33,743 bases of DNA. Source: an uncultured Planctomycetia bacterium. GTDB taxonomy: Bacteria; Omnitrophota; Gorgyraeia; Taenaricolales; CAZCCH01. This document shows positions 2,423-33,743 of this stretch, one piece after another. The notes under the pieces were generated by a model that was not told the origin of the DNA, did not search any database, and worked only from the letters and a program-made list of their open reading frames with translations. Numbering within the stretch: the first letter of the stretch is position 1; every line of letters starts with the position of its first letter. The stretch lies in contig CAZCCH010000015.1 in assembly GCA_964497315.1 (NCBI GenBank), positions 1 to 33,743 on the forward strand, read 5' to 3'. A program made the translations under genes and the position numbers.

Positions 2423-3454
2423 ATGAGAAAAGCCACATTAATTTTTATAACATTGAACTTAATGCTTTTTTTAACTATTTCTTTATATGCAGCAGAGCCA
2501 AAAGAATATCAGCCCTATGGTCCGTTACCTGTGAAAAATCAGATGCCGCTCTATATCTTCTTTTTATCTTTTTCCCCAGATAAAGCAGAAGTTGTTAATG
2601 AAGGAAAATTTACCTATGATTTTGGCTATCAGGTATCAAATGGGGTATTAGACAAAGTCACAACCGGTACAGAAGACTATATAATTCAGATAGATACAGA
2701 AGTAAATAGATTCCATGTGGATTTAAGGTATGGCGTCCATGAAAATGCCGAAGTGGCGTTGGAGGTTCCATATATAAGATTTTCCAGAGGGTACTTGGAT
2801 GGGTTTATTGAAGGCTTTGAAGAGACGTTTAATTTCACAACCCCGGGTGCAAGAGAAAACTCCGACAGGAATAGCTATAAATATGAAGTACGAAAAGGGG
2901 GTGTCTACGCCATACGTTCGAATACACCCCATGGTACACTTGGGGATTCACTGCTGAGCTTTAAATACAAGTTGCTTGATGAATGCGATAATTATCCTTG
3001 GCCAACGTTTTCTGTTAAAGGAACACTAAAAATCCCCACTGGATCAAAAAGCAAATTGACAGGGAATGAGGAATGGGAAGGGGGTATTTCTTTATTGGCT
3101 GATAATTCTTTTTCAGATAGATGGTTTGGATATTTAAATTTCAACACAGCGTTTATACAAGAACCATCATTTTTTGAAGGTTGGGACATAGATAGCTATA
3201 TCATATCAGGGACCGTTGCCACTGAGTACTTTTTTACAAAAGGTTTGTCTACTATTTTGCAGCTATCTATAAACACAACCCCATATCCCTCAAGTGGAAC
3301 CGATCCCCTTGATAACGATGCATACGATGTGGCATGGGGATTTAACTATAAGTATACTGATTCAATAGAAGGACGTATATACGCAACTGAGAATCTAGAG
3401 ACAGATTCTTCTCCGGACTTTGGTCTTGGTGGTGGGTTTAAATTGAAGTGGTAA
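2423..3454 (+). CDS. Putative outer-membrane beta-barrel protein (secreted, unknown function)
   Basis: Sec signal peptide (MRKATLIFITLNLMLFLTISLYA-AEP), alternating amphipathic pattern, aromatic C-terminus (GGGFKLKW). Confidence 0.45.
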   Translation: MRKATLIFITLNLMLFLTISLYAAEPKEYQPYGPLPVKNQMPLYIFFLSFSPDKAEVVNEGKFTYDFGYQVSNGVLDKVTTGTEDYIIQIDTEVNRFHVDLRYGVHENAEVALEVPYIRFSRGYLDGFIEGFEETFNFTTPGARENSDRNSYKYEVRKGGVYAIRSNTPHGTLGDSLLSFKYKLLDECDNYPWPTFSVKGTLKIPTGSKSKLTGNEEWEGGISLLADNSFSDRWFGYLNFNTAFIQEPSFFEGWDIDSYIISGTVATEYFFTKGLSTILQLSINTTPYPSSGTDPLDNDAYDVAWGFNYKYTDSIEGRIYATENLETDSSPDFGLGGGFKLKW

Positions 3455-19033: not shown

Positions 19034-22000
19034 ATGAAACTATCAAACTCTAATATCCACAAAATTATATCAATAGCACTCCTTGTGACGTTTATGATGT
19101 CACTGATAGGGCCGGAGCTTGCCTTAGCTTCTTCTGAAACCCTTAGACCCCATGTTACATCAAGAAAAAAACCTCTTCTAAAAGAGATGATTGCAAGGTT
19201 TACTGAGTTGCAACGTCCTTCAGTAGCATCTAGTGCAGAAGACTTTAGAAAAGATGAAGTGCGCATAGTTAGAGAAATGACTGAAGCTGGACAGCTTTAT
19301 TTTCGCCATGAACCAGAAAAACCAAGTGCAATATACTATATACCATTTTTGCGATATAGAGCAAGGCTTACACGTTGTAGGGGTGTAGCTGATTATACCA
19401 GTGCTGTGTTGAATGAGAAAGATAGAAGGTTTTCTACATTTAAGAGTGAGCGCGATGGTTTTGAGCGTTGGTTTAGAACTTCCCAGGAAGGTTTTCCATC
19501 GGCAGCATTGTACGACATTGATGTTCATCCTCAAGACTTAAATGATGCCATTGCAGCACTCATAGAGCAGAAGACCAAAGAAAAGGACAATACCATTACT
19601 GTCAGGGCCTTCGGTTCTGGTTTACCGGCCTTACTTTTACCTGGAGATCCAGCTACACTTCTAGCAGGAGATGTTGAAATAGAAACTATTTTAAAGTTTA
19701 TATTATCAGGTCTAAGGCATACCAGGAATAAAGCAAAATGGACTGTGGTAGTTTATGTATATGATAAAAAGACAGCTTATTTAGGGCAACTGGAAAAGGT
19801 TCTTTTGGAAAAATTAGAAAACTCACCAATGCCATTTAATATTGTATTAAATCTTAGATATGGTGATATAGCAGATAGAGAGCAATACCCATATATGTTT
19901 GAAGAACAAAGTGACATTAATGTTTGCCGTAATATCACTCAAAGTGGTGAGAGTTTTTCTAAAGGAGATAGTATTTTTCATGGGCAATTAGTTAATAGCC
20001 TGTCACCTCATGGGTTTATTATACATGGTGCGCGTAGAAGGGGAGATAGGATTATATTAGCTTCTGATAGAGATGCTCTTAAGAGGTTAAGTGGCGATTT
20101 TCTGGATAGTAATTCTTCAGAAGATGAAGCTACTAGTAGGTTTTCAGAAATAGGTGCAATAGGTCACTTGGAAGAGGAAAGAAAAACAGAAGATCTTATT
20201 GCTGCATTGACTGCCTTTGATATTCCTTTTATACCCACAGAAAGCAATTGTGAATTTACAAGAATTTCCGCAGGTCATTCAAACCTTACGTATAATATTA
20301 AGCATAATGGCAAAAATAGGCATATTCTTCAACAAATGAGCACAATTTATGATGCAAATGCCCTTAATGCTAATCTGAACTTATTAGAACAGGCTCAAGA
20401 TGCATGGCTTAAGGAAGGCGCAGAAGATGAATACTGGCAGCCCGTTCATTATGTTAATGTCAAGGGCGCTTCTGATAAGCTATATTGTGATACAGCAGGC
20501 AGAATTTGGCGTTTAATGGATTATATTCCAGGAGAGGTTTTTGGAAAATTTAGTGATGTTCCTCAGAGTGATCGTAGAGAGATTGCCCAATCTCTTGGTA
20601 GGGCAATTGTTGTTTTTCGAAGAATGCTAGAATCAGTTCCTTTAGAAAGCTGGGAAAAGGATATGTCAGGTTTTCATGATCCACAATACTTTTATGCTTA
20701 TCTTCATTCTATTTGGCTGGGTCAGGAGGTGCCATTGAATTTTACTGATGGATCATCACATATGGTAGTTAGAGATCCTAGCGTAACAAGTGAATATTCA
20801 GAAAGAATAAATCTCTTAAAGAGAAAGATTGAAGATAGGAGACATATCTTAACTAGCTTAGATGAACTTGGCCAGGTTGTTTCACATGGAGATTTAAAGA
20901 TTGATAACCTATTCTTCCGAAAACACAAAGGCCGCTGGAAGTGCATATCTATTGCTGATTTAGATACGATACAACCTAGAAACGTCCTTACTGATCTTGG
21001 TGATGCACTGCGTTCTGCCGGCAACCCAGCTGGGTCAGAACCGAGAGCAATAGATGATGTAACAATAGATGTTGATGTGGTCACAAATATAATAAATGGA
21101 TACCTAGAAGCCACAGCAGGGTTTTATGATCACACAGAGGCAGAGCGCTTGAGACCACATACTATTGAGGCATTTAAACTTCTTCTGTATGGGCAGTCTA
21201 TGTGGTATTTAGCAGATGCACTTACTAATAGCGCATACTTTAATATAGGTGCAGAGAGAGCGCTATATAAGGCAGAGGTGCAGATGAGGGCATTGGAGCA
21301 GTTGGAAGAGTTAAGTCTAATTAAAGATGGCCCATTTGCTGATTTTGTCAAACCTGATGCCAGTAGGTTTGGGGAAAGGACTGCCGAAGAACGAATTGCT
21401 GCGCTGCGGGAAGATTTGGTGTATTATGAAGCAGCCGCGACAGCGTCTTCAGCACCTGATCAGGATTTTCCAGATGATATTTGTGATGTAGGTACAGGCG
21501 AAGCCCACCTGATGAATGAAGTCCACATTGCAGCTGATTCTGATGAGCGCCCTGAAAGAATAATTAGCGCATACACCGCTGGTCCTTGCCGGGCATATGT
21601 TATTAAAGGTAGAGTAAATGATGAGACAAGATTGTTTCTACGACATAGAGCTGCGGTAGAGGGCATACTTGATGATTTAAGAGAAGATATAGCCGCTTTA
21701 GAGAGAGCTGGCATGCAAGATAGAGAGGTTGTTTTTAAGCTTGATTTAAAGACGCAAGCCGGCCTGGAGGTCGTGAGGCTTGGATGGGTTTCTCCAGAAG
21801 AACTGAGGGAAAAAATTAAGGAAATATGCGGGCCTCGAATCTATACAGAAGAAGGCATTTTCCCACATGAAATTACTGATGTAATTGCAACCCAGGAAGG
21901 AGTAGTTATTTATTGCCCATATAATTCTAATGCCTCCAAGATTATCTTATGGCCAGAAAGCAAGGAAGGTGTATTCATGGATGCTGTATTGCCCAATGCA

Positions 22001-25000
22001 GAAGTCGTAGAGGATGAGGCATTTTCTGCTCAAAGCAGGTTTGGGGAAATGGCTGTTGATGCACTCAAGGGGAACATAAAGAGAGCGGTGTCTGTATTTA
22101 GGGATACGGCTATTGTAAAAAGTCCACAGTTAATAGAGGAAGACAAAAACAGAGTTTGGGTTATTAACAATATCTTTGAAGATAGATTCCTTCTAGATAG
22201 CGTAGTTTTAAAAGATCCAGACCCTAAACATGAAGAATATTTTTATGCTTCAAGAGAAGGGCTTGATATGTATGAGGCCCATTTTGAGAGTGACTATCCT
22301 CGCGTTGAAATAGCCCAAACAGTGATAATCGATAATCCGAAGGAAAATGATCTAGTTGGTACAAAAAGGGCATCACAGTGCCTTCCACTACTATTTGCTA
22401 ATATTCCTGATAACAAGCCCAACATGATAGGTTCTTCTCATATATTCACTTCGACAGACCCGACATTTTCATCCTTGGGTGATAAACTTCTTGACGCTGG
22501 ATATGAAAACCTAATTGTTGTAATTCCTCGTCCGAAAAAGCTTGGACGAACCGTAGCTCCATTCGCATTAAGAACATCTCAGTATGAGGAGGTGATAGCT
22601 AATATGCGAGCTAAAGGAATTACAGTATACGAGGTACCTTATCAAGACGTTTCAATAAGTGCTGCCGCAACAGCAGATGGTTTTGCGATATTCATAGAAA
22701 AATTCGTTGACCCCACAACAAAAAGGACAAAAGACATTGAAGAATTTGTTCTTCTTGAACCTATAAAAACATGGCAAGAATTCTCAAGTAGGTTTGGGGA
22801 GGTTGCTATTATTGAAGGTAATGCTGCACCGGAAGTTCTTCCGGCAACAGAGAATAGGATAGAGCTTGCGTTGAATATGCCTTCTGAAAGGGCTACGCAA
22901 ACAGGAACTGCCTGTATTAGACCCACGAAGGAAAGGGGATTTGCTGATGTATGGAGCCGCAGGGATTTTATGAAAGCCGGTGCTTTTGCTACGACTGTAG
23001 CAACTGTTTTTGGCAGTTTACCGAAGACCGGAGTTGCTGCTACGCCAGATGCTATTAAAGTCAAGGCAAAGGAGCTTTGTACACAATATTTAAAAGATGT
23101 TTGCGATGAGAAGATAACACTTGGACTAGATAATAGTTTAGGAACCTGGCGTGAAGTTCTCAAGGACAGGGAAGAATACGCCGACTTACTCAAGCCCGAT
23201 AATAATTATGCATTGCTTACTGCGTTTGTTTTTGACACGTTGTTTCCTGCGCTAGAGGAAGCTGCAAGCCGAACACGTGTCAGTGCCCATAACGCATCTA
23301 TAAATATAGAATTAGCCTTAATGAATCTCTTGGATAAAAAAGATGAAAAGGTCGAGGCATTTTTACGTCATACCTTAGCCAGGACCACTGACTCCTTGGT
23401 TAGAACAAGACGAATCCAGAATAAGGTAGAACGCGATAGACGAATTGGTATTGCACTGCAAAGACTGGAGAGCGCCTCTGCTTACATAGGGCCAGAGATT
23501 TCAGATAAGCTGGTTAGTATAGTCAAATTACACGATAGTTTAACGCAGCTTGGTCTGGAGCAAAAGGAAGAGATAGAAAGAGTATCCATGGAGATCAATA
23601 GTTTGATAATAGACCTAAATAAAATTCTAATTCCGCTTGGCTTATACTGCAGGGTTTCAATGAATGTAAGTCTGGGTGATGACAAAGAGCATATCTACAT
23701 CAAGTCGTTTAAAATAGAAAAAACCCGTTTATATAAAGCAACTGACGGCAAAGTTGTTAAGGTCTATATTGTAAAAGGGATAGATAACATAGCTATAACA
23801 AATGTCTTTGGTTTTCGCAGACTGGAAACAGACTATGCTGTAGTAATTTTAGATAATATAGAATCCAAAGCGAGAGACATAGAGGAAGTCCTAAAACATG
23901 GAAAATCTGATGCCCATAAGGATATAGAGAGCAGGCTGACTGCAATTGGGAAAGCAAGATTAGCAGACCTAAGGGTTTTACTTGTTGAGCTGGCAAAAAA
24001 GGAATTTAGTGGTTTGACCAGACAGCAAATAATGAATAAGATTCAAGTTTTAATCGAGACCCACGAGATAAGACATGTATTAGATAGGGGTAACTTTACA
24101 AGGGAAGAGCGCGATAAAAAAGAAGGTTCGGCTTTTATGGCAGAATTGATTCTGGCAGAATTGATTACAGGTACAGCTACATATTATAGTGTATTAAAAT
24201 GGGCTGAACATGTATTCAGAGGAGGAGAGCATGATTATGCCGCAAGGATGGTATTTGAAGGATTGATGAAAAAAGCAAAAGAGAAGGGATATGTAAATGC
24301 ATCCGTAAACCTGAAACATGTTAGCTTTAGAGAGTTGATAAAGACAGTAGAGACATTGCGCAGGCTAAGTAAGGGTGAAATTGCAGGTCTGGCAAGAGAG
24401 TCCTATAAAGAAATATTTGGTTTTGAATTTATAGATGCCTTGCCTGTCATTCAGCCTCCTGGTCGCTTTACCGAGCCAAAAAAGACAGCAACGTGTGAAA
24501 TAGCAATTAGAGGGAGAATGCATATTATACCCTCAGACTTGCTTGCCTATGAGCTATCAAACCTTTATAACGCAGTTAGGGGTAAGATTAATTTTACATT
24601 TAAGAAGGAGCTAGGAGACGATAGAGTTCTTGAAATGACTAATCCCGGGACAATAACTAATATTCTTAGCTTTGGACTGGGGCCTGGGGATATTCTAGAA
24701 GTTAGCGTGGAAGAGGACCTACCACGAGATGTGCAGGAAGAGGCATTGAATTACATTGAGGCTTTGTTTAATAGCTACCATATACTACAAGCAACTCAAT
24801 TGGCGCAGATGCATGGTGCTGAGCAGGCACGGATGGCTTTAGGTGGAACACCCTATGTTGATCTTGCCTCAGCAGAGCAGTATGGATTGGAGATAGTGCG
24901 TTCAGATCTATCTAGCAGTCTTTGGCCTGCATTAAGAAGACTAATAAGCATGTTGAAGCGTGATGTTGAGATTTCTCGTTTTACAGAAAGGGGAGATGAA

Positions 25001-28000
25001 ATACCCACTTCACCAGTCGATCCTGCAAGGTTTAGGGAAGATAGTAGGCTCATAGATGAGCGGGCAAGGGATATGCTGAAGGTGCTGTGTGAAAGCAGGC
25101 GCAGCCAGCCAACCAACACCAAAGCACGAAGGGCATTGGTGCGTTTAGAACACCTCGTGGATTCCAGATGGTCGTATGGTGAACAGTGGAGCGAAGTTAT
25201 CGATACATTGCGCGAAGCCGGACTCATCACCTCAGATACGGCAGGGTGGCTCGGCAGTTTGGATGATGAAGTTGTGCGCAGAACCATGTTCTATGTGACT
25301 GTGCGTTATCTTGACATAATGGAGCATGAAGTTTTATTTCACGGAACCTCACTGCATAACATAGACAGTATCAAGAAACATGGTCTGCACCCTGAGCATG
25401 TACCCCCGGGCAAAGAAGAACTTCAAAGGGTATTTGGCATAGTAGGCAAGGCGCTCGGAGAAGATCGCGCAATGGAGATTACAGAAGGTCAATTAAGTTT
25501 TGAATATGATCTAAGCCTTGCTAATTTTTACTTTGCTATCCTAGGCCCTGAGATGTTGCGAAGAGCGATAGGGGATTTACAAGAAATAAAGAAGCTAGGT
25601 TTTCCTGAAATTGATGAAGCAGATAGAAAATTTATAGAATATTTTCTTGAGCACTGGAATGATGGGTATCTTTCTTCAAACCAGCCATGCCTTCTGGCCG
25701 TACCGTTTAAGACAATCGTACAGTTTATGGATTTAGAGCAAGACGCTTACCAAAGGGATCGGACTAGGTTTCTGAAAAGGCCGCACGAATTTTTTAATGA
25801 TGTTATATTGCTTTACCTGTTTCCTTGGGAAACCTGGGTGGGGGAGGGTACATTGTTACCATTCCGCCTTCCAGCGCTTGATAAAATTGAAACAGCAATG
25901 CACGAACAAATGGCCGTTACCTTCCATGACGTGCATACATATTCCAGACCTAACTATGATCTGGGTGATATTTATGTTGTTACTGGTAAAAGAGATGCCC
26001 TCAATCTAGTACCGCTAAAACAAGTAGAAATAGATGAGCTTGAGAGAACCGCTGTTGTCCTCAGAGAAGTAAATCAAGAATGTCAAGAAAAACAAGGAGA
26101 AGTTTTCAATCGTAGCTTTTCTTCCCAGGAAGCACTTGATTTTTGCGCCGAGCTTCACAGCATTGCCCGGGAAGCCATTGCCAAGTCAAATTATGAGAGA
26201 ACCGATGGGTTATCAGGTGCTCGCTTTTCTGAGCAAGTTGAGTTTGTGGAGGATAAACTGGTCAGGGAACCAATAGAGGATGAAAATCTAACCTTGGACC
26301 AAGTGGAACAAATTGAAAGAGACAGACAGCAGATTGAAGCAGAATTGACTCGGCACTACGGGGATGCCGAGGCGTTTTTTGGAGAAGGACCACGTGATGG
26401 GATAAGAATTATTGCAACCACTGATGAAGAAGGCGAATTGATAGCAACTAGCCCCATTTATTATATAGCCCAAGGGGTAGCAATAAATGAGACCAGGCAA
26501 GAGGTATTGCTGAATTATCTTAATACGACTAGAGCGGGGATAGCAGAAGAAGGTTCGCGATATACGGTTTTTCATGAGATGGGTCACTGGGCTAATGAAA
26601 GTAGAGGTATTTCTAGTATAGTGCGGGAATTGATAGGTCCACAGATGGAGGAGATAGCGGCTTCGCATATTGAGAGGCATCCGGATGAATTGGGATTTTA
26701 CCTTGACTTGTATAATTCAAAGCTTAGAGAAGGTGAGATTCCTGTGGATAGGCTGCAAGAGTTACTGAAAGGCTGTTTAGTCGTCAAAGGCCTTACGCTT
26801 TTCGAGGATTGCTTGGTTGACAGGCAGTTATTAGAGTTAGCTCGCGCAGGAGATCTCGAAGGACTTGACAGAGAATTAATTGGTACAAGGAAAATACTTT
26901 TAGGCGATAAGCTAAAACAGCCAGATCTTTGTTGTCTCGCCATACTTAGATACAGGCTGCTTGAGGAAGTATATTCTCCAGATGATAGGACCAAGGTAGA
27001 TATTTTCCCGGATGACTTCAATCCAGAAAACTTTGGAATAAACGCAGAAATGATGAAGCAGATAGATGATGATGCGCGAGCGATGGCTGTGGCAATCAGG
27101 GGTGCGGAGCGCATGATAGCTAAATACGCGCCAGGAAAAATTGCGCCTCCAGGAGATTTGAGGGATTTAAAAGGCAGGCTGAAGTCATCTGTTGGAGATT
27201 TTATGCGACCATTGAAGAAATATCTTACCATTCCTGCGCTAATTTCTTATTTCAAGCTTAATCATACCCGAGTAGATCCCACGCGTTTCACCGAGGGTAC
27301 GGGTTCACTTAGTGCGGAGGGAAATTTGCCCGGCGATCAAACACTAGGTACTAGTGATTATTCCCCTGCCCGGTTTGTGGAAGGGGATGCCATTGCGCAA
27401 TGGCCTATTTCTATTGACGAGGCATTATTAAGAAGTGGTGAGTCTGCACGAGCTATTGCTGTAGAACCTGACTATGTTCCACCTTATGGAGTTTTAGCTC
27501 CTGGAGCTATTAATATTTCTGATTATCTCGCACTTGGCATGCTTGCTGCTTCAGGGATATCAAGTGAGCCGCAAGGGCAGGATGGGAAATTGAGCCGCAG
27601 GACGTTTCTTAAAGCTGCAGCCGCAGGAGCAGGCGTGGCAATTGGCAGCGCAGTAGTTCACAAGGTTCTAAAAAGCGATGATATAACACCGCGCATTTTA
27701 GATGATGCAGCCGATGAAAGATTAAGAAATGCTGGTAAGGCGATAAGTGCTAAATTCATGCATGTCTATGAAGAATACAAGGACAAAAATCCCGCCGAAA
27801 CAAAGCTGGTACGTGCACTTTTTAGAAAAATAAATGACCACAAGACAGAAAAGGAGATCATGCACCATCCTGAGCTTAAACACAAAAAAGATAACGTAGA
27901 CGTACTAATGGGTATAGGCGAACCTGCCGATGATAATGGTGAATCCCCTATCTATCTTTCATATAGCATACTGGGCCAACCCGATGAGATATTATGGGCA

Positions 28001-29113
28001 AAAATGGTCCACGAAGGATGGCATGCATATAATGAAATCCTCAAGAAGGCCAGTGGTGCAGCGGAGGCTATACGGCATGCACAAGATGAGATGCTTGCTA
28101 ATATAACCGAATGGGTTGAAAATCCCCAAAATCGCGATTCCATTAAAAGATATTTTAGCATTTGGGTAAATGAAGAGGAAATTGCCAATAGCTTGGAAAG
28201 AGCAGTTTTTGTTAGAGAAATAGGCGGTTCAGACAATGAGGCTATCGAAAGATTTGTGCAAAAAGCTATACAGCAAAATCCCAGGGCTCAGGCAGATACG
28301 GGCTCAGGCAGCAAAGAGAGAAAAGAGGCCTATGCGAGACATCTGAGAAGGTATGTAAGAGATCGAATACTGAGATATTATCGAATTCCCTCGTTACATG
28401 GTAGATTGCGATATATACTTAGTAGCTATTATTCACATGTAAAACCTGCTGTGTACATCGGGTTATTTCTAACAGAATTTTATGAAGGACGAGCTGATCA
28501 TCGAACTAGGACAACGAGCCCAGGCAGAAAGTTCTTCATAGGGCCAGATAGAATCGAACTAAATATAAGATCTCATGGAGCTAGTGGGCAGCAAAGGCTT
28601 ATTCTTACGCCTAAAGAGAATTTTTTAGAATGGGCATCGAACTGGGCAAATTCTGAGGAATATAAAAGATTGTTTGTGAAACCAGAAGGCCTTACGAAAA
28701 TGCGCGGTTCCCGCTTTTCCGAAGCCTCCCAAGCCATATTTGGCAAAATTGAGCAACCCACAGGCATAATAATGAAAGCAGATTTTGCTACTAAAATCTT
28801 TCCAGTTTTGCCAGAGTTAGCAGTCCACTTTGGCCAAAAGGTAACAATTGCTGTAGTGGGCCCTTCACAGCTAAAGGAGAGAATAACCAAAGTAAATGCA
28901 GTCTTGCCACATGATGTATCTATTATACTATGCGATACCATTGATGAAGCAGCCAAGGAGTTGTCTGAGAGAGGTATAGGCCTTATCAGATTACTCACCA
29001 GAAAAACAATAAAAGACCTTCCTTTGGTTCGTGAAACCCTCCTTATTACAGAGAAGACCCTACAGCTAATAGATGAGTTGAGATCCCGCAAAGAAATAGC
29101 TGGTGGGGCATAA
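19034..29113 (+). CDS. Giant secreted multidomain protein (3359 aa)
   Basis: Uninterrupted 10,080-nt ORF. Sec signal peptide (cleavage about ALA-SS). Kinase-like catalytic loop HGDLKIDN (residue 618) plus nucleotide loop SAGHSNLTYNI and IADLD. Internal SRRDFMKAGAFATTVATVFG (residue 1308) and SRRTFLKAAAAGAGVAIGSAVV (residue 2854). HExxH at residues 1677 (HEIRH), 2514 (HEMGH) and 2993 (HEGWH). EVLFHGTS...SIKKHGLHPEHV ART-clan motif at residue 2103. Confidence 0.8.
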   Translation: MKLSNSNIHKIISIALLVTFMMSLIGPELALASSETLRPHVTSRKKPLLKEMIARFTELQRPSVASSAEDFRKDEVRIVREMTEAGQLYFRHEPEKPSAIYYIPFLRYRARLTRCRGVADYTSAVLNEKDRRFSTFKSERDGFERWFRTSQEGFPSAALYDIDVHPQDLNDAIAALIEQKTKEKDNTITVRAFGSGLPALLLPGDPATLLAGDVEIETILKFILSGLRHTRNKAKWTVVVYVYDKKTAYLGQLEKVLLEKLENSPMPFNIVLNLRYGDIADREQYPYMFEEQSDINVCRNITQSGESFSKGDSIFHGQLVNSLSPHGFIIHGARRRGDRIILASDRDALKRLSGDFLDSNSSEDEATSRFSEIGAIGHLEEERKTEDLIAALTAFDIPFIPTESNCEFTRISAGHSNLTYNIKHNGKNRHILQQMSTIYDANALNANLNLLEQAQDAWLKEGAEDEYWQPVHYVNVKGASDKLYCDTAGRIWRLMDYIPGEVFGKFSDVPQSDRREIAQSLGRAIVVFRRMLESVPLESWEKDMSGFHDPQYFYAYLHSIWLGQEVPLNFTDGSSHMVVRDPSVTSEYSERINLLKRKIEDRRHILTSLDELGQVVSHGDLKIDNLFFRKHKGRWKCISIADLDTIQPRNVLTDLGDALRSAGNPAGSEPRAIDDVTIDVDVVTNIINGYLEATAGFYDHTEAERLRPHTIEAFKLLLYGQSMWYLADALTNSAYFNIGAERALYKAEVQMRALEQLEELSLIKDGPFADFVKPDASRFGERTAEERIAALREDLVYYEAAATASSAPDQDFPDDICDVGTGEAHLMNEVHIAADSDERPERIISAYTAGPCRAYVIKGRVNDETRLFLRHRAAVEGILDDLREDIAALERAGMQDREVVFKLDLKTQAGLEVVRLGWVSPEELREKIKEICGPRIYTEEGIFPHEITDVIATQEGVVIYCPYNSNASKIILWPESKEGVFMDAVLPNAEVVEDEAFSAQSRFGEMAVDALKGNIKRAVSVFRDTAIVKSPQLIEEDKNRVWVINNIFEDRFLLDSVVLKDPDPKHEEYFYASREGLDMYEAHFESDYPRVEIAQTVIIDNPKENDLVGTKRASQCLPLLFANIPDNKPNMIGSSHIFTSTDPTFSSLGDKLLDAGYENLIVVIPRPKKLGRTVAPFALRTSQYEEVIANMRAKGITVYEVPYQDVSISAAATADGFAIFIEKFVDPTTKRTKDIEEFVLLEPIKTWQEFSSRFGEVAIIEGNAAPEVLPATENRIELALNMPSERATQTGTACIRPTKERGFADVWSRRDFMKAGAFATTVATVFGSLPKTGVAATPDAIKVKAKELCTQYLKDVCDEKITLGLDNSLGTWREVLKDREEYADLLKPDNNYALLTAFVFDTLFPALEEAASRTRVSAHNASINIELALMNLLDKKDEKVEAFLRHTLARTTDSLVRTRRIQNKVERDRRIGIALQRLESASAYIGPEISDKLVSIVKLHDSLTQLGLEQKEEIERVSMEINSLIIDLNKILIPLGLYCRVSMNVSLGDDKEHIYIKSFKIEKTRLYKATDGKVVKVYIVKGIDNIAITNVFGFRRLETDYAVVILDNIESKARDIEEVLKHGKSDAHKDIESRLTAIGKARLADLRVLLVELAKKEFSGLTRQQIMNKIQVLIETHEIRHVLDRGNFTREERDKKEGSAFMAELILAELITGTATYYSVLKWAEHVFRGGEHDYAARMVFEGLMKKAKEKGYVNASVNLKHVSFRELIKTVETLRRLSKGEIAGLARESYKEIFGFEFIDALPVIQPPGRFTEPKKTATCEIAIRGRMHIIPSDLLAYELSNLYNAVRGKINFTFKKELGDDRVLEMTNPGTITNILSFGLGPGDILEVSVEEDLPRDVQEEALNYIEALFNSYHILQATQLAQMHGAEQARMALGGTPYVDLASAEQYGLEIVRSDLSSSLWPALRRLISMLKRDVEISRFTERGDEIPTSPVDPARFREDSRLIDERARDMLKVLCESRRSQPTNTKARRALVRLEHLVDSRWSYGEQWSEVIDTLREAGLITSDTAGWLGSLDDEVVRRTMFYVTVRYLDIMEHEVLFHGTSLHNIDSIKKHGLHPEHVPPGKEELQRVFGIVGKALGEDRAMEITEGQLSFEYDLSLANFYFAILGPEMLRRAIGDLQEIKKLGFPEIDEADRKFIEYFLEHWNDGYLSSNQPCLLAVPFKTIVQFMDLEQDAYQRDRTRFLKRPHEFFNDVILLYLFPWETWVGEGTLLPFRLPALDKIETAMHEQMAVTFHDVHTYSRPNYDLGDIYVVTGKRDALNLVPLKQVEIDELERTAVVLREVNQECQEKQGEVFNRSFSSQEALDFCAELHSIAREAIAKSNYERTDGLSGARFSEQVEFVEDKLVREPIEDENLTLDQVEQIERDRQQIEAELTRHYGDAEAFFGEGPRDGIRIIATTDEEGELIATSPIYYIAQGVAINETRQEVLLNYLNTTRAGIAEEGSRYTVFHEMGHWANESRGISSIVRELIGPQMEEIAASHIERHPDELGFYLDLYNSKLREGEIPVDRLQELLKGCLVVKGLTLFEDCLVDRQLLELARAGDLEGLDRELIGTRKILLGDKLKQPDLCCLAILRYRLLEEVYSPDDRTKVDIFPDDFNPENFGINAEMMKQIDDDARAMAVAIRGAERMIAKYAPGKIAPPGDLRDLKGRLKSSVGDFMRPLKKYLTIPALISYFKLNHTRVDPTRFTEGTGSLSAEGNLPGDQTLGTSDYSPARFVEGDAIAQWPISIDEALLRSGESARAIAVEPDYVPPYGVLAPGAINISDYLALGMLAASGISSEPQGQDGKLSRRTFLKAAAAGAGVAIGSAVVHKVLKSDDITPRILDDAADERLRNAGKAISAKFMHVYEEYKDKNPAETKLVRALFRKINDHKTEKEIMHHPELKHKKDNVDVLMGIGEPADDNGESPIYLSYSILGQPDEILWAKMVHEGWHAYNEILKKASGAAEAIRHAQDEMLANITEWVENPQNRDSIKRYFSIWVNEEEIANSLERAVFVREIGGSDNEAIERFVQKAIQQNPRAQADTGSGSKERKEAYARHLRRYVRDRILRYYRIPSLHGRLRYILSSYYSHVKPAVYIGLFLTEFYEGRADHRTRTTSPGRKFFIGPDRIELNIRSHGASGQQRLILTPKENFLEWASNWANSEEYKRLFVKPEGLTKMRGSRFSEASQAIFGKIEQPTGIIMKADFATKIFPVLPELAVHFGQKVTIAVVGPSQLKERITKVNAVLPHDVSIILCDTIDEAAKELSERGIGLIRLLTRKTIKDLPLVRETLLITEKTLQLIDELRSRKEIAGGA

Positions 29114-31955: not shown

Positions 31956-33743
31956 TTACCAGCTGCTAGTAAATGTCAAGAATGTATCTATGCTATGCTG
32001 GGTGTCAGTTTGCTCATCTTTTGCTGAAAGAGACATGTATTTAGTACCATATTCATCAAGGCGATACCTGCATAAGCCTTCTATGTCGTATCCCCCTGTT
32101 TGGTTATTTAATGCAAGCCTAGAAGATAGCTCTAAAGAATCATCTAGGTTAAAACCAAGCCCTATTTCTTGTTCGCAGACCTGCCAAATGCCTTGATTCT
32201 GCCAGTTTAGATTAGCTAGCCAAAGATTAAATGATTTTTCCCCTATATTATACCTTAGGTCTGTACCATAGCGCATAAGGCTGCGCCCCAAGTCATTTTC
32301 TAGGAATAACTCTGCATTCAACCCCAATATATCAAAATTTGTAAATCCCTTTATATGATTGAAACTAAAAGAATCATTCATGTGTAGTTGACTACCCAAT
32401 CTTAACCATGGCATAACTTCAATAGAGGGTGATACCTCAAAGCCATTATTTACATCTCTAGATAGGTATAAATCCAATTTCCTATCCCATATTTGTCTTT
32501 TGATTTCTGCTTCTATCTTGCTTGCAAAACGCAGTTCCATCATCCTATCAAGAGAGCTTTTGCCTGAGCCAACTAATTTAATCTTATAATCATTCCTGTC
32601 AAGTTCAACAGGTATATATGGATAGAAGTATTGGCTTAGACGCCAACCATAGGTAGGATTATCTATAGTAACGCCGAATTTTCCTCCAGGAATAAATACC
32701 CCATTATCTTCGAGCTCTTCTGTGTAAAGAGCGTTATTAGAAAGGCTTTTGTTTATTCCAATGTCTATATCCTCATCAAGATAATATAAATACGCCAATC
32801 CATCAAAGGAAATGAAATTCCCAGATATACTAAAAAGATCCCTGTGGTACTTTCCATAGATACGATGTGCAGAAGTGCTGGCCCACAAGTGAGTTTGGCT
32901 GTATGAATCTAGGAAAAGAGGCATATCCAATGCCAACTTACCATATTCCTGGCCTATAACTCCATCCTGGTATTCTCCTTGATAGCTTGCCTCAGGTGTG
33001 AAGTAGACCCCAGGGCCTTCCATTCCCTCTTCTCCTCCACTTCCCTCTATGGAATCGCCTAATTCTTGCACCAGTTGCCTTTCAGCAGCTTGCATATAGG
33101 AATCTACCCCTTCGTACCTTAAGGCATCAAAGAATTCCCACAGCCTCCCCTGAGGAGTGTCTGCATCAATTATGTCAATACAGTCATAAGATGAAAGGTT
33201 TATCTCTTTTAGATCAATAGCAAGCGAATGTATAACATCATCCCATTCAGGATTTCCAGTAGTTAGATATTTTTCCAATTCGCGCGGGTTTATCCTTACT
33301 TCTTTTAAGCTAGCATGAATGGTCTGATTTCGAACATCTTTACCTATACGCCTTGTCTCATAATTACTGAATACCTCTTCTAAGGTATCTGCAATTTCAT
33401 CTTCTGGGTATGTTTCTACCTCTATTATATAAACATCGTTATACAAACCACCTACATTTGTATATTTGTTAAAATCTACTCTCGCGCCAGTAACATCAAG
33501 CAACACGTCATTAAACCTGAATCTACCATCTCTCAAGGTATCTTCGCCTTTTGCCCAGGCTACGTTAGTTTCTATTGCACCATCTTCAGATATACTATGC
33601 CATTGCCCTCCATCTTCTTCAAGGTTCAATTCAAATATATTACCATTATAATCGGCCCTAAGTAGTTTTTCCAGCTCATCGTATTCAGCAGGTAATGTCA
33701 ATTAAATTGTGTAAATTCCTTTAAGGGTTTATCCTCCCACTTG
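31956..33743 (-). CDS. Hypothetical protein, acidic N-terminal region plus probable C-terminal outer-membrane beta-barrel; 5'-partial (runs off window)
   Basis: Reading frame is open to the window edge; the listed start is a TTG with no signal peptide. C-terminus FLTFTSSW with alternating beta-strand pattern. Confidence 0.5.

Follow-up and report, generated by a model that had tools for sequence, protein, structure and literature searches.

Twin-arginine (Tat) signals are defined as N-terminal, and the internal ones that have been accepted lie only behind a small, Sec-inserted membrane domain. In such dual Sec-Tat proteins an internal RR is followed by a Tat-dependent transmembrane (TM) segment of low hydrophobicity and by positive charges (PMC5449189). 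Among long bacterial precursors, cleavage at S/T-X-F↓X-D/E has been demonstrated for the multi-fragment surface proteins of Mycoplasma hyopneumoniae (PMC3322551), and post-translational cleavage has been proposed for the giant membrane-associated proteins of Omnitrophota, which are 10-150 kaa long, with numerous TM helices and with SecA-like or C39/S8 peptidase domains (bioRxiv 10.1101/2023.11.21.568195; 10.64898/2026.06.07.730766). Nothing relevant on bacterial polyproteins that carry Tat signals came up in a literature search. Here we describe a 3359-residue protein of about 370 kDa, from a family, not described before, of proteins built as strings of modules, whose sequence holds deep inside it a genuine and conserved twin-arginine signal, one of two in the chain. 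We consider it more likely that this signal serves the export of its own module once the chain has been cut than that it marks the start of a protein translated separately.

The giant gene lies in the window, by which we mean the whole stretch of 33,743 nt that was analysed, and is chromosomal, with housekeeping genes on either side and Fic and patatin genes nearby (Table 1). The identical protein was found on five contigs, and an ENA scaffold that is 99.92% identical reads through the Tat site; the ORF is unbroken in independent assemblies, and the five contigs and the scaffold together rule out an assembly chimera. The protein opens with a Sec-type leader, conserved across paralogues, whose n-region is basic and whose h-region spans about 16 residues, with Pro at -6 and A-L-A at -3 to -1; it looks cleavable rather than anchor-like. 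A profile search with this leader, which is too short a query, gave no matches. Omp85 is encoded in the window and a secretin at a related locus from the same samples, from which the host appears to have an outer membrane. SecA from the related locus L003 matched proteins of many phyla at only 48-65% identity, and the highest-ranking matches (about 58-59%) came from MAGs of Omnitrophica, Nitrospirae and Methylomirabilota.

The giant ORF is preceded, at a distance of 49 nt, by a c-di-GMP-I riboswitch aptamer, which scores 43.5 bits (gathering score 35, E=1.8e-5). The terminator-like hairpin that follows overlaps the 3' end of the aptamer and is thus probably the expression platform of the riboswitch. 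The paralogue P0005 has a variant of the c-di-GMP-I riboswitch upstream (RF03167, 68.6 bits).

Table 1. Features of the giant gene and its upstream region, in positions of the window.
Feature	Residues or detail	Position	Strand	Basis
c-di-GMP-I riboswitch aptamer		18901..18985	+	Rfam RF01051
Terminator-like hairpin	12-pair stem, then TTTTTTT	18975..19005	+	
Giant ORF	3359 aa	19034..29113	+	ORF call
Sec-type leader MKLSNSNIHKIISIALLVTFMMSLIGPELALA	1-32	19034..19129	+	by eye against standard signal-peptide rules
Junction motif 1, A-RFTE	R55	19196..19207	+	
Junction motif, R codons of the other 11 copies, part 1		20138, 21365, 22037, 22790, 24464, 24977	+	
Junction motif, R codons of the other 11 copies, part 2		25028, 26222, 27284, 27371, 28712	+	
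APH / N-acetylhexosamine-1-kinase-like kinase domain	408-672	20255..21049	+	PF01636, PDB 4ocu/4wh1
First internal Tat-like signal SRRDFMKAGAFATTVATVFGSLPKTGVAA	1308-1336	22955..23041	+	TIGR01409
HEIRH	1677, in module 1255-1812	24062-24076	+	
HEMGH		26573-26587	+	
Junction motif A-RFVE	R2780, opens the Tat module	27371..27382	+	
Tat module	2782-3228 (447 aa)	27377..28717	+	junction motif at each end; L001 alignment
Proposed internal start	AGGA 27579-27582 and in-frame TTG 27590-27592 (L2853)	27579..27592	+	
Second internal Tat-like signal SRRTFLKAAAAGAGVAIGSAVVHKVLK	2854-2880	27593..27673	+	PF10518, TIGR01409
HEGWH, zincin-like motif	2993-2997	28010..28024	+	motif search
C-terminal "type A" module	3229-3359	28718..29110	+	39-85% identity to three paralogues

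An earlier note, made from the letters of the window, had read a twin-arginine signal at residues 2854-2880, and profile cut-offs and shuffles confirm it. The segment is made up of SRRTFLK, the h-region AAAAGAGVAIGSAVV and HKVLK, with the consensus S-R-R-T-F-L-K at residues 2854-2860, and scores 23.9 bits with Pfam TAT_signal (PF10518, cut-off 22.7) and 24.9-25.1 bits with NCBIfam TIGR01409 (cut-off 16.7). The site had been placed correctly at 27579-27670, but the end falls 3 nt short, the codon of S2854 beginning at nt 27593 and that of K2880 ending at 27673. The pattern RR.F[LMIV]K occurs twice in the giant protein, against 0.009 times per shuffle, and followed by an uncharged 16-mer it is expected 5e-5 times per shuffle; since shuffled sequence fails to yield it, the signal is beyond chance. 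A further internal Tat-like signal, which the note had overlooked, lies at residue 1308 (SRRDFMKAGAFATTVATVFGSLPKTGVAA; TIGR01409, 19.5 bits, cut-off 16.7).

The h-region of the signal at residue 2854 fits the Tat type, being uncharged and less hydrophobic than those of Sec signals. Rough sums over 19-mers on the Hessa scale give +4.7 for this segment and +4.7 to +7.0 for the Tat-like segments overall, compared with +1.0 to +1.9 for the TM helices of the family member P0004 and -1 to +3 for the family leaders. This very low hydrophobicity weakens the suggestion that the segment is a plain TM anchor. After the h-region comes a c-region of H-K-V-L-K, and a G-S-A stretch, conserved in the homologue L001, is a possible -3/-1 site, with no clear A-x-A. 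The charges of both internal signals follow an N-in/C-out pattern, and the stretch from one to the other contains no hydrophobic segment, so the two cannot both work in an uncut chain. No tat genes were found within the roughly 100 kb of lineage DNA covered, and no closely related genome among the GTDB representatives scanned.

The signal at residue 2854 begins 74 residues into a 447-aa module, and this module aligns end to end with residues 461-907 of L001 (positions 2-447 of both) at 61% identity. Comparison with L001, the only homologue, showed no loss of the twin arginines: RR-x-F-L-K, the Ala/Gly-rich h-region, G-S-A and a basic K-x-L-K tail are all kept, and the L001 signal is equally internal, at residue 533 of at least 1126. 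Identity is 49-54% in the signal region and 63-68% in the domain after it, a difference that is usual for signal or pro-regions. The 70 residues before the RR are conserved as in-frame protein (49% identity to L001) and belong to the same module. HEGWH follows the signal within the module and is invariant in L001; the region that bears it had no family match in Pfam or PDB, and no cofactor-binding domain was detected there. An AF2 model of the module, with a pLDDT of 37, was too low for use.

Searches for further relatives of this module returned only P0001, both in a word-indexed search of 5.8 billion clusters and by full phmmer against 1.84 billion representative proteins, and neither set contained a free-standing, Tat-exported relative. 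Residues 2779-3359 gave no matches in genome contigs or metagenome contigs, and the alignment of the C-terminal module gave none in metagenome contigs.

The modules are delimited by a junction motif, [S/A/T]-R-F-x-E ([S/A/T/G] at its widest), of which the giant protein has 12 in-frame copies where 0.9 are expected, and the nine family proteins together have 45 where about 3 are expected. At least eight paralogues with the same plan occur in the same metagenome set. They combine modules differently, and BLAST homology blocks between them begin and end exactly at junction motifs. The motif is conserved at the protein level, as its Arg codons vary (AGG, CGC, CGT and CGG); because the codons differ and tandem repeats are absent, we rejected the alternative that the junctions mark a repeat or recombination site in the DNA itself. 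All five internal signal- or TM-like segments of the family lie 16-75 aa past a junction motif and none lies mid-module. The pairs of motif and segment are 1253 and 1308 (55 aa apart, in module 1255-1812) and 2780 and 2854 in the giant protein, 459 and 533 in L001, and 254 and ~272, and 445 and ~464, in P0004.

A kinase domain (Pfam PF01636, E=2.2e-10; PDB 4ocu/4wh1, E~5e-9) lies within module 371-779, and besides this NahK-like kinase there are sigma54-interaction AAA+ modules with GAFTGA loops, a Fis-type HTH and a receiver domain. Such cytoplasm-type modules (kinase, sigma54 AAA+, receiver) lead one to expect that the chain is exposed to the cytoplasm, the site of Tat recognition. There are three HExxH motifs in the giant protein (HEIRH, HEMGH and HEGWH), and hhalign among the modules bearing them found no relationship except the Tat motif itself. 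The two modules with Tat-like signals share no homology, so that the arrangement arose twice; no homologue of module 1253-1981, which holds the first signal, was found in database searches. Searches of the giant protein with PADLOC, NCBIfam and PDB recovered the kinase domain, the Tat signal and, weakly, profiles of the PARP/RNA 2'-phosphotransferase ADP-ribosyltransferase type, and nothing else. A C-terminal module is conserved in every paralogue; that of the giant protein has a generic Rossmann-like alpha/beta fold and is not a known secretion domain.

Based on these observations, we suggest that the giant protein may be a precursor that is cut at its junction motifs, after which the module would be exported or anchored by Tat, a reading to which we give somewhat less than an even chance. 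The chain consists of the Sec-type leader followed by a series of modules that are unrelated to one another and have the junction motif at their borders. Cutting there would free module 2782-3228 with its twin-arginine signal about 74 residues from the new N-terminus, and the freed module would then be exported by Tat or anchored N-in/C-out, which would leave its zinc-protease-like HEGWH domain extracytoplasmic. The same would hold for module 1255-1812, where the other Tat-like signal and HEIRH are found, and the kinase-type modules would remain cytoplasmic. We infer cleavage, its location and the use of Tat from the arrangement of motifs and signals. The proposal of a processed polyprotein, which the earlier note held in reserve, is thereby favoured, with the 447-aa module as the unit and not a 506-aa C-terminal protein. 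By extension, the family may form a polyprotein system of giant chromosomal ORFs, some of them riboswitch-controlled, in which a dedicated protease would cut [S/A/T]-R-F↓x-E and the products would be sorted to cytoplasm, membrane and Tat by signals that cleavage activates; we regard this wider scheme as possible and, on balance, doubtful.

Several points count against cutting followed by Tat export. With about 74 residues still ahead of the RR after the cut, the n-region would be unusually long by the standard of Tat signals, and the Sec-type leader might thread the whole chain out unfolded, so that the Tat receptor would never encounter the RR motifs. An AF2 model of the C-terminal module puts the junction motif at the start of a helix rather than in a free linker. 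RFxE shows no significant depletion in 68 proteins from the same organisms that are not members of the family (1 observed, 2.85 expected, P=0.21), and conservation of the Tat signal, as read from the alignment, comes from a single homologue.

Were the polypeptide to stay uncleaved, the Tat-like segment could anchor the intact giant, through Sec as a weak TM helix or through Sec-Tat cooperation of the kind known from actinobacterial Rieske proteins, leaving the HEGWH and Rossmann-like parts near the C-terminus outside the cytoplasm. The RR, the segment of low hydrophobicity (+4.7) and HKVLK are indeed three features of dual Sec-Tat proteins (PMC5449189), and the two hydrophobic segments upstream, the leader and the first Tat-like segment, are formally an even number. 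Yet that count requires the first segment to insert in opposition to the charge bias of its RR, both segments are far less hydrophobic than the P0004 helices, the leader does not resemble an anchor, and a cofactor-binding domain was not detected; in L001 only the leader lies upstream of the signal, an odd number, so that its RR would face the periplasm. We judge this anchoring of an intact chain unlikely, and we give the same low weight to the signal being a fossil, in a module captured from a once-independent gene for a Tat-exported metalloprotease and no longer targeting anything, for instance because the whole chain leaves by way of the Sec leader. Modules that resemble captured ordinary genes (kinase, bEBP, receiver), two non-homologous modules each with a signal near its start, the GC content of the family genes (0.41, against 0.37 in the flanks) and a leader that is a good Sec signal would all suit such capture. 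Loss of function is harder to reconcile with the persistence of every diagnostic Tat feature at 61% overall identity, the uncharged h-region and basic tail among them, and with two internal signals that still exceed a curated HMM cut-off; the supposed ancestor was also not seen, as no free-standing homologue of the module occurs among the 1.84 billion representatives.

The modules might instead act in another cell, if the chain left through Sec and a further secretion step and were cut outside, with the Tat-like signals redirecting the two protease modules through the Tat system of a target bacterium. Every paralogue has a Sec-type leader and a conserved C-terminal module, and these, together with effector-like content (the kinase, the weak ADP-ribosyltransferase-type match and three HExxH motifs), the Fic and patatin genes nearby and the c-di-GMP riboswitch on the gene, are consistent with this; riboswitches of that class frequently regulate surface and lifestyle genes. 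Nevertheless, sigma54-activator and receiver modules that are intact would make poor effectors, and the generic fold of the C-terminal module does not point to secretion; we find such delivery quite improbable. Least probable of all is the translation start that the earlier note proposed at TTG 27590, which would yield a separate Tat-exported protein of 507 aa (about 506 in the note). The AGGA 7 nt before this in-frame TTG, one codon ahead of SRR, is present as claimed but is not distinctive, being one of 16 in-frame NTG codons in the giant ORF with an SD-like 4-mer 4-10 nt upstream. In favour of the start, the chance that one of the 16 falls within five codons upstream of the motif is only about 2-3%, by our own estimate from that count. 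These sites do not follow module boundaries, and many genuine genes in the window, the giant gene among them, have no SD. The TTG is TTA in L001 and L002, the SD-like AGGA belongs to Gln-Asp codons, and L001 has no ATG, GTG or TTG between its AGGA-like CAGGAT and the RR codons, hence no alternative start. The in-frame conservation of the 70 residues upstream also argues against a start here; no promoter-like site was found near the TTG, and no in-frame start codon closely precedes the first Tat-like signal.

Two consensus-grade Tat signals deep in a 370-kDa chain would be new if functional. If our preferred reading of a cut precursor is right, export signals can be unmasked by proteolysis, and a cellular bacterium relies on polyproteins, a strategy that otherwise characterises viruses and a handful of toxins. 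The junction motif supplies testable cut sites, the lack of which is a stated obstacle in work on giant bacterial proteins, and gene callers and signal-peptide predictors that suppress internal signals would miss such products. Even if the signals are fossils, the family documents the capture and shuffling of modules at a defined peptide motif.

MARTX toxins and the polyvalent proteins of phages and conjugative elements are autoprocessed multi-effector giants that share with this protein a conserved head and tail and interchangeable internal enzyme modules, and by this comparison the peptidase-like HExxH motifs could do the processing. The giant gene differs in lying on the chromosome between housekeeping genes, and its product in having a Sec leader and transcription-activator and receiver modules and neither RTX repeats nor a CPD domain. 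Classical Tat signals (PF10518, TIGR01409) have the same S-R-R-x-F-L-K, weakly hydrophobic Ala/Gly-rich h-region and following basic residues; here the signal is internal (residue 2854 of 3359), there are two per chain, and a Sec-type leader is also present. The dual Sec-Tat proteins (the actinobacterial Rieske protein Sco2149, Sco3746 and polyferredoxins; PMC3471235, PMC5449189) likewise combine an internal RR, a segment of low hydrophobicity, C-terminal positive charges and a globular domain downstream. They have a small membrane domain upstream, with an even number of Sec-inserted TM helices that puts the RR in the cytoplasm, whereas the giant protein has thousands of residues there and, in place of such helices, only the leader and the weak first Tat-like segment; it also carries two signals in series, and no redox-cofactor domain was found in it.

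The P97/P102 adhesin precursors (PMC3322551) are alike in being large, with an N-terminal signal and a repeated small-x-Phe-x-acidic motif, and the 12 [S/A/T/G]-R-F-x-E copies at the ends of homology blocks formally match the S/T-X-F-X-D/E pattern. In the adhesins that motif is a proven endoproteolytic site giving several fragments, whereas in the giant protein the match is one of pattern, from which cleavage would follow by analogy. Arg is fixed at X in the giant's motif, enzyme and regulator domains take the place of adhesin repeats, and a host with an apparent outer membrane that of a wall-less mollicute; Pfam and NCBIfam gave no P97/P102 match. With the giant proteins of Omnitrophota, for which neither a junction motif nor an internal Tat signal has been reported (bioRxiv 10.1101/2023.11.21.568195; 10.64898/2026.06.07.730766), the present family shares very long ORFs in uncultured, low-GC bacteria and the combination of a signal peptide with internal hydrophobic segments.

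The giant protein carries two internal Tat-like signals (see table). One of them, SRRTFLKAAAAGAGVAIGSAVVHKVLK, scored 23.9 bits against Pfam PF10518 (curated cut-off 22.7) and 24.9-25.1 bits against NCBIfam TIGR01409 (curated cut-off 16.7). In 20,000 protein shuffles, the motif RR.F[LMIV]K, observed twice in the giant protein, arose 0.009 times per shuffle, and 5e-5 times when an uncharged 16-mer had to follow it. Because both model cut-offs are passed and shuffling almost never yields the motif, we regard the feature as real and beyond chance, and the Tat consensus that an earlier note had read within the giant ORF stands. The other signal, SRRDFMKAGAFATTVATVFGSLPKTGVAA, was missing from that note's list; its module is not homologous to the Tat module (residues 2782-3228), and it too contains an HExxH (HEIRH, residue 1677), while the HEGWH of the Tat module occupies residues 2993-2997.

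Coordinates of the features discussed (window positions unless a locus is named; junction motifs are named by their Arg)
Feature	Location	Strand	Details
Giant ORF	19034..29113	+	3359 aa, the one very long ORF of the window
Tat-like signal SRRTFLKAAAAGAGVAIGSAVVHKVLK	residues 2854-2880, nt 27593-27673	+	in giant ORF
Other internal Tat-like signal SRRDFMKAGAFATTVATVFGSLPKTGVAA	residues 1308-1336, 22955-23041	+	TIGR01409 19.5 bits, above cut-off 16.7
Junction motif	R55, 369, 778, 1002, 1253, 1811, 1982, 1999, 2397, 2751, 2780, 3227; 19196...28712	+
c-di-GMP-I riboswitch aptamer	18901-18985	+	RF01051, 43.5 bits vs gathering score 35
Terminator-like hairpin and T-run	18975-19005	+	overlaps c-di-GMP-I aptamer
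c-di-GMP-I-GGC variant riboswitch	L090 4629-4705		precedes P0005; RF03167, 68.6 bits
Group I intron-like ribozyme	L003 9452-9656		~300 nt ahead of P0002 start; RF00028, 76 bits
Family members			giant; P0001 (L001); P0002 (L003); P0004 (L084); P0005 and 1584-aa protein (L090); P0006 and 858-aa protein (L085)

An assembly artefact is ruled out by the identical 3359-aa product on five contigs and by a scaffold of 99.92% identity in another archive, which reads through the Tat site with a single indel near residue 1700. In that ENA scaffold (L089) the indel, at ~2812-2824 (window ~24140), splits the ORF into 940-aa and 1658-aa pieces and reflects either strain variation or an error in sequencing.

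Conservation of the signal at residue 2854 could be followed in one homologue, P0001 of metagenomic locus L001, in which the RR-x-F-L-K core, the uncharged h-region, the G-S-A stretch and the K-x-L-K-S-D-D tail are all kept; the arginine pair, whose loss from homologues the earlier note had named as a counter-indication, is thus retained in this single relative. The signal region is conserved at 49-54% and the domain after it at 63-68%, a slight difference of the kind usually seen in signal or pro-regions. In L001 (2293-2295), and in L002 from an independent sample, an in-frame TAG directly after HEGWH breaks the module; it is a recent nonsense mutation or is read through, since the part downstream is still 63% identical to the giant protein.

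The Tat-like segments are weakly hydrophobic (rough Hessa-scale 19-mer sums +4.7, +7.0 and +5.7), with basic residues after them (HKVLK, YKALK); the corresponding rough sums for the TM helices of the paralogue P0004 are +1.0 and +1.9. Dual Sec-Tat proteins show the same pattern of low hydrophobicity and then basic residues in their Tat-dependent helices (PMC5449189). Judged by sequence, the profile is that of Tat h-/c-regions and dual Sec-Tat helices, unlike ordinary Sec-inserted anchors, which weakens the proposed transmembrane anchor as an ordinary Sec-inserted helix.

The earlier note had further proposed that a TTG at 27590 behind an AGGA starts a separate Tat-exported protein of about 506 aa. 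Both elements are present (AGGA at 27579-27582), but 16 in-frame ATG/GTG/TTG codons of the giant ORF are preceded at 4-10 nt by an SD-like 4-mer, and many genuine genes of the window, including the giant gene, have no SD at all. In P0001 (L001 and L002), the sole homologue of this region, the DNA reads CAG GAT AAC AAT TTA AAC CGC AGA, with a TTA leucine codon and no alternative start ahead of the RR. No sigma-70-like site lies near the TTG, with no regional enrichment of such sites (28 found vs 29.2 expected), and SRRDFMKAGAFATTVATVFGSLPKTGVAA has no in-frame start directly upstream. In-frame conservation extends over the 70 residues ahead of the RR (49% identity to L001, including W-P-I-S-I and D-Y-V-x-P-Y-G-V), which are therefore protein and not leader RNA. 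Internal initiation is, on these grounds, most improbable.

The peptide [S/A/T/G]-R-F-x-E, here called the junction motif, occurs 12 times in the giant protein vs 0.9 expected, and is conserved as peptide rather than DNA, as its Arg codons vary between copies (AGG, CGC, CGT, CGG). Exhaustive homologue searches returned few relatives, which together with their neighbours make up a family of at least eight paralogues, all of which come from a single set of JGI and ENA metagenomes and are located at different housekeeping loci; database searches found none beyond one narrow lineage. Nine family proteins hold 45 junction motifs vs ~3 expected. Their common plan begins with a conserved Sec-type leader, (E/D)TLRP or LRTP, and A-R/H-F-x-E, and continues with variable modules each ending in the motif, then a C-terminal module, for which there are at least two alternatives; paralogues have these in common in differing combinations. 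All-against-all BLAST of the junction-delimited pieces tested where homology begins and ends: giant 2782-3228 and L001 461-907 align over positions 2-447 in both (61% identity), giant 2399-2752 matches P0004 777-1153, and P0005 671-927 matches L085 436-694. Because homology begins and ends at the motifs, they mark where the modules of a shuffled architecture are joined. Pfam, NCBIfam, PADLOC and PDB assigned individual domains only and no family, and the architecture of the family may itself be new.

Family genes lie ~4 GC points above their surroundings (0.41 vs 0.37; giant ORF against its flanks, and likewise in L001, L003 and L085), which hints at a separate origin or at an amino-acid composition of their own. 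The giant ORF begins 49 nt past the end of the c-di-GMP-I aptamer, whose expression platform is probably the terminator-like hairpin; with both directly upstream, the gene gives the impression of a separate transcription unit under c-di-GMP control. A search ahead of the two paralogues in L085 found no riboswitch. Window neighbours on the + strand encode a patatin-Omp85 fusion (12235-14562), an HTH-Fic protein (15490-16407) and a Sir2-family protein (10811-11575); Fic genes also adjoin paralogues in L001 and L090. A 581-aa ORF at 31956-33701 (-) has no Pfam match, and its position is conserved in L089.

The giant protein appears to open with a typical Sec-type signal (residues 1-32: K2 and K10 in the n-region, an h-region of ~16 residues, Pro at -6, A-L-A at -3 to -1), and the contents of its family's recognisable modules are of cytoplasmic type. 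The giant protein has an APH/N-acetylhexosamine-kinase-like domain and HExxH in three modules, among which no relationship was detectable; a module with a distant relative, P0007, weakly matches PARP/RNA 2'-phosphotransferase ADP-ribosyltransferase-type profiles. P0006 combines HEAT repeats with a receiver domain. P0002 (L003 10001-12874) places two sigma54-interaction AAA+ domains (intact GAFTGA/GSFTGA loops) and a Fis-type HTH behind a Sec-like leader, an odd combination that suggests a tethered transcription activator freed by cleavage.

All internal signal-like segments in the family lie near the N-terminal end of their module: SRRTFLKAAAAGAGVAIGSAVVHKVLK 74 residues past R2780 in a 447-aa module, its L001 homologue 74 residues past R459, SRRDFMKAGAFATTVATVFGSLPKTGVAA 55 residues past R1253 in module 1255-1812, and two strongly hydrophobic helices of P0004 ~20 residues past R254 and R445. 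Both Tat-like segments have an N-in/C-out charge bias with no hydrophobic stretch between them, so they could not act together in an intact chain, which would also put ATP-dependent and DNA/sigma54-directed modules behind a Sec leader. We tentatively favour a modular precursor cut at the junction motifs, a reading plausible though short of probable, because it removes both conflicts. The pieces would be sorted individually, with module 2782-3228 taking the Tat route as an HEGWH protein that is either soluble or anchored at its N-terminus, and module 1255-1812 doing likewise. The processed polyprotein offered as one option in the earlier note is thus our preferred reading for the topology it resolves. 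The data establish the signal and its conservation, the junction motif, the modularity and the rule on where signals lie within modules, whereas cleavage, the compartment in which it would happen and the use of Tat are conjectural. Experiments have mapped an endoproteolytic site of this form, S/T-X-F|X-D/E, in surface proteins of Mycoplasma hyopneumoniae that are cut into several fragments (PMC3322551), which sets a chemical precedent and is no evidence of relatedness. Against this reading, the RR would still be separated from the new N-terminus by ~74 residues, the junction motif starts a helix in the AF2 model of the C-terminal module, and avoidance of the motif was not seen in 68 other proteins (1 vs 2.85 expected, not significant).

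An uncleaved membrane anchor or Sec-Tat cooperation would fit the local features of the segment, but it requires an even number of upstream TM helices, which L001 does not have and the giant protein reaches only if the first signal is inverted; a cofactor domain was not found either, and we consider this reading unlikely. We are similarly doubtful that the signal is the fossil of a captured gene: the modules do look like captured genes and the GC content of family genes is raised, but both signals still score above curated thresholds and a free-standing ancestor is absent among 1.84 billion representatives. Export of the whole chain as a multi-effector protein, with the Tat signals acting in a target bacterium, is very unlikely.

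Set beside known systems, SRRTFLKAAAAGAGVAIGSAVVHKVLK has the sequence of a classical Tat signal but not the position that defines one, and it is similar to the internal signals found in dual Sec-Tat proteins but departs from their topology. These comparisons are consistent with a Tat-type signal that a modular precursor may use, or at least has retained, at an internal position.
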